Assembly (NCBI GenBank): GCA_027310975.1
Contig: DAICZV010000001.1
Location: forward strand, 1-42,041
Origin: a bacterium
Lineage (GTDB): Bacteria; Patescibacteriota; Minisyncoccia; UBA6257; GWB1-50-10
Direction of reading: 5' to 3'
Length of the DNA stretch: 42,041 bases
Shown here: positions 7,137 to 33,727 of the stretch, piece by piece
How positions within the stretch are numbered: position 1 is the first letter of the stretch
Layout: each line of letters starts with the position of its first letter
Notes under the pieces: model-generated
Database searches by the model: none
Told to the model about the DNA's origin: nothing
The model's input: only the letters and a program-made list of their open reading frames with translations
Position numbers and translations under genes: made by a program

Positions 7137-7165
7137 AGAATAGATAAAAATAGGTTTTCTGGCAA
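7137..7165 (-). promoter_or_regulatory. Candidate sigma70-type promoter for the tRNA-Val/truB transcript
   Basis: Minus strand TTGCCA-17 nt-TATTCT. The predicted start is about 7128-7130, right at the 5' strand (GGGCGTTGC) of the terminal helix. Confidence 0.4.
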
Positions 7166-7172
7166 CCAATAC

Positions 7173-7228
7173 AATGTATGGGAGCTTCGCTCCCATACAT
7201 TCTTGTAACGGAGCTGAGCTCCGTTACA
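7173..7228. repeat. Two tandem REP-like perfect palindromes
   Basis: The two palindromes are AATGTATGGGAGC-TTCG-GCTCCCATACATT (7173-7202) and TGTAACGGAGC-TGA-GCTCCGTTACA (7204-7228). They belong to the same word family as the hairpin at 38906-38934. Confidence 0.7.
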
Positions 7229-29922: not shown

Positions 29923-30585
29923 TTATAGCGCCTTCCCGATGCTTTTAAGAACTTTTTCTATTTTTGTCCGCTTTCTGGAAAGGCAAACTACGCCATCATC
30001 ATAATATAACTTAGGCAATAACTTCAAGGAATCCGCTTTCGCGTATTTTAGCTGGTATACAGAATCGTTGATGCTTTTAGTGATATGGCCGCTTATGCCC
30101 AGGTGCTTCTTTATTTTGGATCGTAGCCATTCAATGTGCATCTTGCTGGCCGAATCAAAACATGTATAGAACATAAAGCTGGAGCGCCAGCGCGGGTCCC
30201 AATAGGAATAAAAGGTGCCGTCACCGTCAAAATGCCCGCGCAAAAAATCAAAGAAATACTTATTTGGTACTGTTATGCCACGAAGCGTTTTTGACTTATG
30301 GGGCGTTAGACCGATGGAGATGAGAAATCTAAAAAACAAGACATCCCCGAATTGCACCCTTAATGCCGGATTAATGCTCCCGACGTTGTGATTACCAATG
30401 CTATTGGTCAGACCCAAGCATCCGATGAAATTATCTATTTGTTCTTTATCTTTTGAAACTAGTGAGATGTGACGCTTGTCGGACGAAAGGCAACCGTCAG
30501 TCGTGATTAGGCCGATCGCGTAAGCGAACTTGGGCGACCACTGGATGGCCACCTTCCCTTGGGGTTTAGTTCCCCTCCTTCCCAT
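29923..30585 (-). CDS. Free-standing two-motif LAGLIDADG homing endonuclease family protein
   Basis: The two motifs are YAIGLITTDGC and FLRGHFDGDGTF. 220 aa, visibly AT-richer than the flanks. Its stop lies 4 nt before the tRNA-Leu 5' end. Confidence 0.8.
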   Translation of the reverse strand: MGRRGTKPQGKVAIQWSPKFAYAIGLITTDGCLSSDKRHISLVSKDKEQIDNFIGCLGLTNSIGNHNVGSINPALRVQFGDVLFFRFLISIGLTPHKSKTLRGITVPNKYFFDFLRGHFDGDGTFYSYWDPRWRSSFMFYTCFDSASKMHIEWLRSKIKKHLGISGHITKSINDSVYQLKYAKADSLKLLPKLYYDDGVVCLSRKRTKIEKVLKSIGKAL

Positions 30586-33106: not shown

Positions 33107-33198
33107 CCTTGAATGAGGAGCGAATGGTGGACCGTACCGGAATCGAACCCCGCAGTATACGCCTGCGGCGTAACTACGGGGCAGGCCGCTGACCTTTG
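33107..33198 (-). ncRNA. tRNA-linked hairpin element, copy B (trailer of tRNA-Ala) with a tRNA 3'-end-like tail
   Basis: Hairpin CCCCGTAGT-TACGC-CGCAG-GCGTA-TACTGCGGGG (33181-33148), then GGTTCGATTCCGGTACGGTCCACCA (T-loop, acceptor-like 3' strand and an encoded CCA). Confidence 0.5.
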
Positions 33199-33270
33199 TG
33201 GACCCGAGGAGAATTGGACTCCTGACCTCCGCTTTGCAAAAGCGGCGTTCTACCACTGAACTACGGGCCC
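33199..33270 (-). tRNA. tRNA-Ala (anticodon TGC) with a non-canonical T-loop
   Basis: GGGCCCG TA GTTC AGTGGTA GAAC G CCGCT TTTGCAA AGCGG AGGTC AGGAG TCCAATT CTCCT CGGGTCC A. The G3:U70 identity pair is present. The T-loop reads UCCAAUU (C at position 55). Confidence 0.85.
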
Positions 33271-33395
33271 AACTATTGTGGGCGTGGAAGGAACCCCGGT
33301 AGTATCCGCCTACGGCGGAACTACGGGGCAAGTCGGACCAGCGATCTCTGTTTTACCGTGCCCCGCACTAAAATTGCGCCTCTGTCATTGATTTG
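33271..33395 (-). ncRNA. tRNA-linked hairpin element, copy C (spacer between tRNA-Ile and tRNA-Ala)
   Basis: GCGCAATTTTAGTGCGGGG is complementary to the tRNA-Ile leader. The hairpin is CCCCGTAGT-TCCGCC-GTA-GGCGGA-TACTACCGGGG (33328-33294), and the tail is ...ACGCCCACAA. Confidence 0.5.
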
Positions 33396-33467
33396 TGCGC
33401 ATGGTAGGAATCGAACCTACGGCCTCGTTCTTATCAGGAACGCGTTCTACCACTGAACTACATGCGC
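33396..33467 (-). tRNA. tRNA-Ile (anticodon GAT)
   Basis: GCGCATG TA GTTC AGTGGTA GAAC G CGTTC CTGATAA GAACG AGGCC GTAGG TTCGATT CCTAC CATGCGC A. 72 nt, no encoded CCA. Confidence 0.9.
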
Positions 33468-33511
33468 AATTTTCAGTGCGGGGTCAGGCAGCGTTCTACC
33501 GCCTTAAACAG

Positions 33512-33727
33512 TTACTGGTTCAAGTTTAGATTTTGGAAACCCTGGATGTCAAATTGCACCTGGGGCGGCGGCGTCGGCGGCACGGCCAGGGCCGCATTGA
33601 AACTTTCTCCCAAATAGACGACGCCCCAGATAACGAAGATGCCGGTCAAGACGACCATAAGGATGGCGAGAAGGAGGAACAGTGATTGCTGGGAGAACCT
33701 TTTTAACTTTTTGAAAGCTTGGGCCAT
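33512..33727 (-). CDS. Small single-pass membrane protein (71 aa)
   Basis: One TM helix (LFLLLAILMVVLTGIFVIWGVVYL). Only 1 nt separates it from the upstream PilO-like gene. Confidence 0.45.
   Translation of the reverse strand: MAQAFKKLKRFSQQSLFLLLAILMVVLTGIFVIWGVVYLGESFNAALAVPPTPPPQVQFDIQGFQNLNLNQ

Follow-up and report, generated by a model that had tools for sequence, protein, structure and literature searches.

The inverted repeat around tRNA-Ile

What does a long helix do around a single tRNA gene, and where did it come from? In the window, the 42,041-nucleotide stretch of DNA that we analyzed, a tRNA-Ile(GAT) gene on the minus strand (33467-33396; ARAGORN; Rfam 76.4 bits) stands between two complementary arms. 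The left arm, CCCCGCACTGAAAATTGCGC (33483-33464), ends in GCGC, which also forms nt 1-4 of the tRNA; the right arm, GCGCAATTTTAGTGCGGGG (33379-33361), starts 16 nt past the discriminator A at 33396. As a preliminary description of this DNA had reported, the arms form 19 pairs with one bulged G. The leader/trailer duplex reached −38.9 kcal/mol, compared with a median of −10.9 kcal/mol for all 42 tRNAs of the 628-kb genome. Shuffled flanks gave −14.4 ± 3.4 kcal/mol, and none of 2000 shuffles attained the observed value. We propose that this bracket most probably represents the inverted-repeat ends of a 123-bp tRNA-replacing insertion cassette (33483-33361).

Only two other tRNAs among the 42 were outliers: tRNA-Arg(TCG) on contig C8 (−31.1 kcal/mol) and tRNA-Val in the window (7094-7022; −21.4 kcal/mol). 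The tRNA-Val bracket, CCCCATTGCAAATT / AAATTTGCAACGGGG, is unlike that of tRNA-Ile in sequence, which agrees with the earlier observation of the same arrangement built from other letters. The bracket of the C8 tRNA-Arg is also its own in sequence.

The tRNA-Ile gene is followed by tRNA-Ala(TGC), and the pair was said to stand without rRNA genes. This proved correct, as the 16S (C33:1020-2702) and 23S (C33:12674-15591) genes lie on another contig with 10 kb between them. The flanks of the rRNA genes, which had been named as a place to look for related stems, held none comparable; their longest complementary runs were 8 and 7 nt, and RNAduplex of the 200-nt flanks returned diffuse, uninformative pairings only. 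The placement of the tRNAs between pilus genes held on one side: a prepilin N-methylation motif was found in the downstream ORF (33081-32425), but the upstream ORFs had no match in Pfam. Rfam scans at gathering and permissive thresholds detected tRNAs and no other known RNA family.

The bracket lies inside an older tRNA-Ile gene

The congeneric genome G003 has the same upstream ORF (...FDIQGFQKLNLNQ*) and, directly behind it, an ordinary tRNA-Ile(GAT) separated by 22 nt from an ordinary tRNA-Ala(TGC), with neither stem nor hairpin at this locus. When the window was compared with this arrangement, the flanks outside the bracket aligned to the two halves of a G003-type tRNA-Ile gene. Of 27 loci from the family and order, 14 have the Ile-Ala pair after this small ORF with the C-terminus FDIxGFxxLNL, indicating that the position of the pair is old and stable. 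It is conceivable that the plain pair of G003 is itself the product of a later replacement and not the original arrangement. A second empty site was sought in G002 and rejected, as the 3′ part of tRNA-Ile is inverted behind the ORF there and the contig then ends. The identity of the flanks as halves of an older tRNA-Ile gene had been missed in the preliminary description.

Read along the minus strand, the locus begins with a promoter-like site, TTGACA-18 nt-TAAACT (33523..33552; 10/12 matches), within the conserved 3′ end of the upstream ORF. The promoter-like nucleotides are conserved upstream of tRNA-Ile in relatives, and this site is likely the promoter of the old tRNA-Ile gene, now serving the inserted copy. 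The 5′ remnant of the old, outer gene follows (33484..33511), matching GGTAGAACGCTGTCCTGA in G003 and GAACGCTGCCTGA in G270, a genome from another genus of the same family. Its inner part, GGTAGAACGCTGCCTGA (33500-33484), comprises the D arm and, of the anticodon arm, the 5′ strand of the stem and the loop through nt 35, and its outer part (33511-33501), which corresponds to the acceptor and the 5′ part of the D stem, is decayed. A 1-nt deletion in the anticodon stem of the outer gene is common to the window and G270.

Next come the left arm (33464..33483), whose terminal 8-mer recurs in a GIY-YIG element on contig C26 (2241-2533) and in MITE-like copies, and the intact inner tRNA-Ile(GAU) (33396..33467), which lacks an encoded CCA and is the sole GAU isoacceptor in the assembly. 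The inner allele has a GCGCATG acceptor, a CGTTC anticodon stem and a GTAGG T stem, and differs from the outer gene in all three. A 16-nt spacer (33380..33395) separates it from the right arm (33361..33379); this spacer is not conserved and could not be aligned with the 12-nt spacer of G270, where the arm has its counterpart in GCGCAATTTTGGTGCGGGG paired with CCCCGCACCGAAAATTGCGC. At the position of the junction tetranucleotide CACG (33357..33360), G270 has CAAG, which also follows the tRNA-Val cassette and empty hairpins.

Beyond the right arm, the order is CACG, TAAAACAGAGATCGCTGGTCCGA, a 39-nt palindrome and TTCCTTCCACGCCCAC. The first part of the 3′ remnant, TAAAACAGAGATCGCTGGTCCGA (33333..33355), covers anticodon nt 36 through T-loop nt 58 and aligns to G003, G002 and G270 TAAGACAGAGGTCGAAGGT(C/T)CGA. 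The old gene's T loop is then split by the palindromic insert, CTTGCCCCGTAGTT-hairpin-ATACTACCGGGG (33294..33332), which is missing from the matching T loops of G002, G003 and G270. The second part, TT CCTTC CACGCCC A C (33278..33293), supplies the end of the T loop, the 3′ strands of the T and acceptor stems and the discriminator, and matches TCCGATTCCTTCCACGCCCA in G002. The outer tRNA-Ile is, on this alignment, a pseudogene, because the 5′ part of its acceptor and D stem and one anticodon-stem nucleotide are gone.

A similar wreck was found behind the neighboring gene. The replacement tRNA-Ala(UGC) (33199..33270) is 100% identical to the tRNA-Ala of G009, which belongs to a different genus, and is followed by a 3′ remnant of the old tRNA-Ala (33125..33195) made up of AGGTCAGCGG, a 38-nt palindromic insert (33185-33148) and TTCGATTCCGGTACGGTCCACCA. 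The remnant matches the G003 tRNA-Ala AGGTCAGCGGTTCGACTCCGCTACGGTCCA, and the palindrome again sits in its T loop. By its sequence, tRNA-Ala has the same replacement history, but no bracket. In the case of tRNA-Val, the outer sequence was also considered as a functional larger tRNA-like RNA; this was rejected, as G003 and G270 show such flanks to be the halves of an ordinary tRNA gene.

Nested tRNA cassettes recur across the order

The orthologous cassette in G270 has the same left junction as the window, including the 1-nt deletion, and its right junction reads CAAG in place of CACG. Between the two stems there was one compensatory pair change (T:A to C:G). The inner tRNA of G270 differs from that of the window in the acceptor, anticodon and T stems, and its 3′ spacer is 12 nt long against 16. 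An additional third, outermost tRNA-Ile remnant is present in G270, indicating repeated invasions at this locus.

We then searched for the end octamers of the cassette, CCCCGCAC...GTGCGGGG, at a matching distance. The pattern CCCCGCAC-N(85-115)-GTGCGGGG was present in 46 of 401 genomes of the order, compared with two for a reversed control. The tRNAs carried as cargo had at least nine identities (Ile, Pro, Asp, Glu, Ala, Arg, Leu, Thr, Lys). All 13 of the tRNA cassettes inspected were nested between the 5′ and 3′ parts of a cognate tRNA gene, in the same orientation, with junctions in the anticodon loop (33/34, 35/36, 37/38) or the D loop. Further nested cases were recovered with the window's sequence in G024, G023, G028 and G008 (Ile) and in G020 (Ala). 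The outer copies in relatives were truncated to varying extents.

At the tRNA-Ile cassette, no target-site duplication was recognizable (CTGA vs CACG). The other tRNA cassettes had no consistent target duplication either, and none could be recognized at most of them; their left junctions often held 4-6 extra nt (TTTA, CTTCA, CTGTG, CGACAG).

The same ends enclose a small nuclease gene

No ORF was found inside or beside the tRNA-Ile cassette, which carries no nuclease gene. Elements with the same ends were also found with other contents. More than ten elements in the genome of the window (G000) have CCCCGCAC/GTGCGGGG ends, and among these ends are those of ORF-less palindromic elements of 66-132 bp. 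Several of the ORF-less elements are near-identical, pairs included, and most have short flanking direct repeats. At one such MITE-like copy (C18:6959-7090), an empty-site comparison showed that the left flank is not conserved in congeners. MITE-like copies also occur elsewhere, for example six in G084.

The 293-bp element C26:2241-2533 has a perfect 19-bp repeat with the same 8-nt ends and encloses an 85-aa ORF (C26:2264-2518) assigned to GIY-YIG by Pfam (E 2.6e-17). This element is precisely absent in G001, G002 and G003, exactly at the repeat ends. The empty sites read GTCAATA(A)AAAGGTCG (also written GTCAATA(A)AAAGGTCGAGC, vs the filled GTCAATAGAA[...]AAAGGTCGAGC), and the comparison of empty and filled sites indicates insertion with a 3-4-nt target duplication.

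Homologues of the 85-aa ORF were detected in 92 of 121 genomes of the order, with 1-11 matches each. Among the best 30 GIY-YIG loci, 24 were bracketed by 13-24-bp repeats with a span of 286-341 bp, and the ends at those 24 loci followed CCCC[GCT]CAC...GTG[CGA]GGGG. Many GIY-YIG loci had 4-nt flanking direct repeats (TTGA, TTTA, TGAA, TAAA, CCAG, CCTG). Ten of the best 30 loci lay at most 200 nt from a tRNA, and in four cases the right arm overlapped the first bases of an intact tRNA. GIY-YIG genes of G000 adjoin tRNA-Cys on C6, tRNA-Gly on C54 and tRNA-Gln on C19.

Maintenance of the pairing and alternative explanations

The arms of 14 cassettes covaried, with a score that was reached in none of 500 shuffles. 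Pairs 9-12 switched among C:G, U:A and A:U, and there were almost no unpaired cells. These results show that complementarity itself is maintained. The view that the feature is conserved at the structural level thus stood, in that the stem recurs with other sequences and covaries. Among relatives, the stem itself is kept in G270 and absent from the G003 orthologue.

The compensatory change and the covariation would be equally expected of a functional RNA helix, and the stem might be maintained for a role in RNA, either as a leader/trailer helix cut by RNase III or as a folding insulator of the inner pre-tRNA. Between G000 and G270 the spacer diverged, yet a compensatory change preserved the pairing, and the arms covary across cassettes. 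The 19-bp helix is strongly stable, an RNase III gene (rnc) is present in the genome, and the flanks resemble the inner tRNA closely enough that they could misfold with it. Despite this, we consider such a role unlikely. Among sense-strand mismatches, the tRNA cassettes had five G.T and six A.C and the nuclease elements 12 and nine, so that G.U was not in excess over A.C. The flanks of the element are asymmetric (TTNA...CAAG), and relative to the tRNA inside they are found pointing either way. In the minimum-energy fold of the RNA, the stem takes the place of the first four acceptor pairs and so competes with the acceptor stem, and the helix abuts the RNase P site. Such a helix is absent from the G003 orthologue and from most tRNAs of the genome, and the identical ends also surround a protein gene and non-coding fillers. 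Because the G.T and A.C counts are balanced, the ends enclose unrelated contents, the G003 tRNA is stemless, the flanks take both orientations and the helix opens four acceptor pairs, the sequences point to a pairing kept at the DNA level, as a property of the element and not as a tRNA-processing signal. The dedicated processing structure offered in the preliminary description met the same difficulties, namely the stemless orthologue, the shared ends around the nuclease gene and fillers, and the competition with the acceptor stem.

Three other origins of the locus appear far less plausible. Nesting could have arisen by local duplication or template switching at a palindrome, for example by a replication slip, without any mobile element. 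Palindromes are hot spots for template switching, and the inner and outer copies of the C8 tRNA-Arg are near-identical, as this origin would have it. At tRNA-Ile, however, the inner and outer genes disagree in three stems (acceptor, anticodon and T), and the inner tRNA-Ala has 100% identity with a tRNA-Ala from another genus; the same ends recur throughout the genome and the order with unrelated cargo, and for one element with these ends the insertion is cleanly polymorphic. We therefore regard a purely local event as quite improbable.

An intron-like insert, in which the stem joins the outer halves and excision yields both outer and inner tRNA-Ile, would account for insertions at or near classical intron positions (33/34, 35/36, 37/38) and for a helix that joins the exon ends. 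It is hardly credible here, as the outer gene is without its 5′ acceptor and D stem, is short of one anticodon-stem nucleotide and has gained a T-loop insert, the outer copies in relatives are variously truncated, and there was no Rfam intron match. A group I intron was rejected, since the 123-nt insert consists of a tRNA and two arms and a permissive Rfam scan shows tRNAs only, as was an archaeal-type spliced or split tRNA, whose exons could not be joined intact after the loss of the 5′ acceptor and D stem and of 1 nt and the gain of the 39-nt T-loop insert. The remaining possibility, raised in the preliminary description, was a relic of a dismantled rRNA operon, with the stem as a leftover RNase III helix of the 16S-23S spacer. 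In its favor, Ile(GAU) and Ala(UGC) are the two tRNAs classically found in that spacer, and 16S and 23S are unlinked here. This reading is already contradicted and in our estimation extremely improbable: the pair lies behind the same ORF in 14/27 loci, the G003 pair is stemless, the rRNA flanks have no comparable stems, and tRNA-Val, tRNA-Arg and many other tRNAs bear the same kind of bracket.

A model for tRNA replacement

The nesting, the common ends, the mobility of the nuclease-bearing member and the maintained complementarity of the arms are established by the comparisons above. From these we derive the following model for the insertion cassette. It would consist of a 19-20-bp terminal inverted repeat around a complete tRNA-Ile(GAU) gene, and would have entered the anticodon loop of the original tRNA-Ile gene between nt 35 and 36. 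The insertion would have destroyed the old gene and at the same time supplied a replacement, read from the promoter of the old gene. The old halves appear to be decaying, as reflected by the 1-nt loss in the anticodon stem, the lost 5′ acceptor and the palindrome added in the T loop. The cassette would be one of a family of small elements with inverted-repeat ends that is spread widely through this order of CPR-like bacteria (candidate phyla radiation, with small genomes); the cargo of these elements may be a gene for a GIY-YIG nuclease of ~85 aa, nothing (MITE-like) or a tRNA.

How the tRNA cassettes move can be pictured in two ways. They may be non-autonomous members that insert in a transposition-like way, with the GIY-YIG nuclease of autonomous ones acting in trans. 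Alternatively, a nuclease cut in a tRNA gene might be repaired in a homing-type manner with the nested allele as template. For a co-conversion of flanks of this kind there is a hint in the junctions and the 1-nt deletion of the outer stem, which G000 and G270 have in common. The consistent entry of a cassette into the gene of its own tRNA could reflect selection or homology-guided repair, both being possible. Under selection, only insertions with a cognate tRNA in the right orientation would survive, presumably because these tRNA genes are single-copy and essential. The helix in the transcript would be a by-product of the element, although it may insulate the inner tRNA from its look-alike flanks.

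More broadly, we suggest tentatively, and short of even confidence, that the tRNA cassette is the ORF-less form of an undescribed class of mobile element. The sole protein of this class would be the GIY-YIG nuclease of ~85 aa, and its inverted-repeat ends would form hairpins. Such an element would invade essential tRNA genes at conserved loops and persist by carrying a spare copy of the tRNA that it destroys, with repeated invasions giving rise to nested genes and to a horizontal turnover of tRNA alleles across Patescibacteria.

The insertion cassette would explain odd, seemingly structured tRNA flanks in CPR genomes as what is left of replaced genes. The point bears on tRNA annotation, on the search for RNA motifs, where such flanks may pass for conserved helices, and on breaks in assemblies at tRNA loci. 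It would also mean that core tRNA genes of reduced genomes are replaced by copies that arrive on a small insert, and that alleles cross between genera, as with the 100% identity of tRNA-Ala. If the link to the GIY-YIG nuclease is true, the family would be a minimal kind of mobile element, based on a new type of enzyme, that breaks a gene and replaces it; a host would then pay a price for losing it. In that case the tiny nuclease and the hairpin ends would lend themselves to tests as a simple system for DNA insertion in laboratory strains.

Comparison with known systems

Neither tRNA-nested cassettes nor bacterial GIY-YIG elements bounded by inverted repeats were described in the texts covered by a full-text literature search. 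Several known systems share individual features with them. Like MITEs and small IS elements, the elements described here have terminal inverted repeats, short target duplications at many copies, a dispersed distribution, ORF-less members and presence/absence polymorphism. Unlike in MITEs and IS elements, only ~8 terminal nt are conserved, whereas the rest of the arms varies and stays complementary; the ORF, where present, encodes a predicted GIY-YIG nuclease and belongs to no known transposase family, and the cargo tRNA matches the disrupted gene.

Short palindromes with a conserved terminal motif, variable covarying stems and a dispersed distribution are also typical of REP/RAYT systems. However, the CCCCGCAC elements carry cargo, show target duplications and are without the GTAG head of REP sequences. 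A direct RAYT/REP link was rejected, as the sole Y1-transposase-like ORF (C27:76-843) is flanked by another palindrome, GAATGTATGGGAGC...GCTCCCATACATTC.

Integrative elements that target tRNA genes likewise carry tRNA sequence that compensates for the insertion and leave duplicated tRNA fragments behind, comparable to the old tRNA-Ala 3′ part after the new tRNA-Ala. They differ in being kilobase-scale, in using integrases and in duplicating only the attachment segment, whereas a whole tRNA is held here in ~120 bp with no recombinase gene. The RNase III helix of rRNA operons resembles the bracket as a long helix of 5′ and 3′ sequences around a stable RNA, but the bracket flanks no rRNA, is absent at the G003 orthologue and has arms in common with protein-coding cargo.

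Within this bacterial group, the nearest published case is that of the rRNA genes of CPR bacteria, in which GIY-YIG-encoding insertions that are not introns have been reported, mostly at the tips or bases of stem-loops (PMC11270868). These resemble the present elements in occurring in the same bacterial group, encoding the same protein family and interrupting structural RNA genes while being neither group I nor group II introns. They differ in that they were found in rRNA genes only, with no cargo tRNA and no nested replacement (PMC11270868), and the terms 'tRNA' and 'inverted repeat' are absent from the text of that study.

A parallel for the replacement of tRNA genes is found in phage T4. 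SegB is a free-standing GIY-YIG homing endonuclease encoded in a tRNA gene cluster; it cuts inside tRNA genes at the T-loop motif GGTTCRANTCC and spreads itself together with neighboring tRNA genes (PMC2330249). Similarly, the small GIY-YIG genes described here adjoin or sit inside tRNA genes, and resident tRNA genes have been replaced. SegB differs in being a phage protein of ~220 aa with a DNA-binding part, in having no terminal inverted repeats and in lacking nesting in its target, and the tRNA that it targets is exchanged when the region undergoes gene conversion. The elements reported here are 105-340 bp long, bounded by inverted repeats and found in cellular genomes, and the tRNA-Ile cassette is without a nuclease gene. 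By analogy, T4 SegB is the closest experimental precedent for the tRNA-replacing cassette.

Nested tRNA genes

In the genome to which the window belongs (G000), a tRNA gene nested within another was found at G000:C8:846-1068 (minus strand), where a second tRNA-Arg(TCG), bracketed by inverted-repeat arms, lies in the D loop of an outer tRNA-Arg(TCG). The bracketed copy and its junctions read CTTG[CCCCGTTAGATAT...ATATCTAACGGGG]TGAAG, and the outer copy, which is almost intact, also contains a hairpin insert between T-arm nucleotides 53 and 54. The nesting of this tRNA-Arg within a tRNA-Arg seems to be recent. Its D-loop junction recurs around tRNA-Ile in two other genomes (G024 and G023). At a tRNA-Ile locus from another genus of the same family (L117, G270:C25:61017-61735), three generations of the gene were detected in one place: the outermost is a remnant cut after CCTGA, the D loop of the middle gene contains two hairpin inserts, and the innermost generation is a bracketed copy.

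Within the window, a good promoter-like TTGACA-18-TAAACT (33523-33552, minus strand) lies in the conserved C-terminal codons (FDIxGFxxLNL) of the small ORF upstream of tRNA-Ile. The location of this site may explain why the peptide end and the position of tRNA-Ile are jointly conserved across the order. At the corresponding locus of a same-genus genome (L071, G002:C13:1-500), the same small ORF is followed directly by the 3' part of tRNA-Ile in inverted orientation, and the contig stops after a further 45 nt, reflecting either a rearrangement or an assembly break there.

Nuclease ORFs and RNA genes

A 293-bp element outside the window (G000:C26:2241-2533) consists of a perfect 19-bp inverted repeat enclosing an 85-aa GIY-YIG ORF, the stop codon of which falls within the right arm. 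Precise empty sites for this element were identified in three same-genus genomes (L127, L128 and L129), with a target duplication of 3-4 nt. Small GIY-YIG ORFs were also observed in G000 (regions C6:7300-7720, C54:8640-9100 and C19:6980-7700) immediately upstream (5') of tRNA-Cys and tRNA-Gly(CCC) and between two 3' remnants of tRNA-Gln; broken halves of those same tRNAs lie beside them.

The 220-aa ORF at window positions 29923-30585 (minus strand) matched LAGLIDADG_3 (E 1.3e-7) and stops 4 nt ahead of tRNA-Leu(GAG); it is a further nuclease gene adjoining a tRNA gene. A LAGLIDADG-like motif (IAGFLDGDGS) is encoded immediately past the 23S rRNA match, at G000:C33:15592-15790.

Variant tRNAs and tRNA remnants

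The replacement tRNA-Ala(UGC) (window 33199-33270) and tRNA-Thr(GGU) (G000:C33:11323-11395) have in common the unusual T loop TCCAATT, with C at position 55. Two hairpins precede this tRNA-Thr(GGU), a GCCCCGTAG element and an empty one of the CCCCGCAC type. In the three same-genus genomes G001-G003 (L072-L074), remnants of the 3' end (CCACCGGAGC) are repeated in arrays behind tRNA-Asn, and a GC-rich hairpin unit stands ahead of each remnant, a pattern suggestive of successive insertions at the 3' end of the tRNA.

Other palindromic elements

Copies of a second palindromic family in G000, CCCCCACATAA...TTATGTGGGGG, sit exactly at gene starts (C5:1734-1831, C5:5684-5778, C6:4402-4492 and C65:7644-7747). 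Each is flanked by ATGAAT / ATGAA, and the start codon is therefore duplicated. A Y1-transposase-like (RAYT-like) ORF (G000:C27:76-843, in region C27:1-901) has the palindrome GAATGTATGGGAGCTTCGCTCCCATACATTC on either side, and a copy of this palindrome is present in the window upstream of tRNA-Val (about 7165-7200).

Using an order-wide search for the end pattern, we detected in many genomes (e.g. G323, G371, G386, G397, G387, G045 and G118) several copies per genome of elements that measure about 108-112 nt, are bounded by CCCCGCAC ends and share a conserved inner module, ...AAGGCGAAGCCGCCTNNCGGCTC.... They may carry a small RNA as cargo, or the element may simply be a successful MITE.
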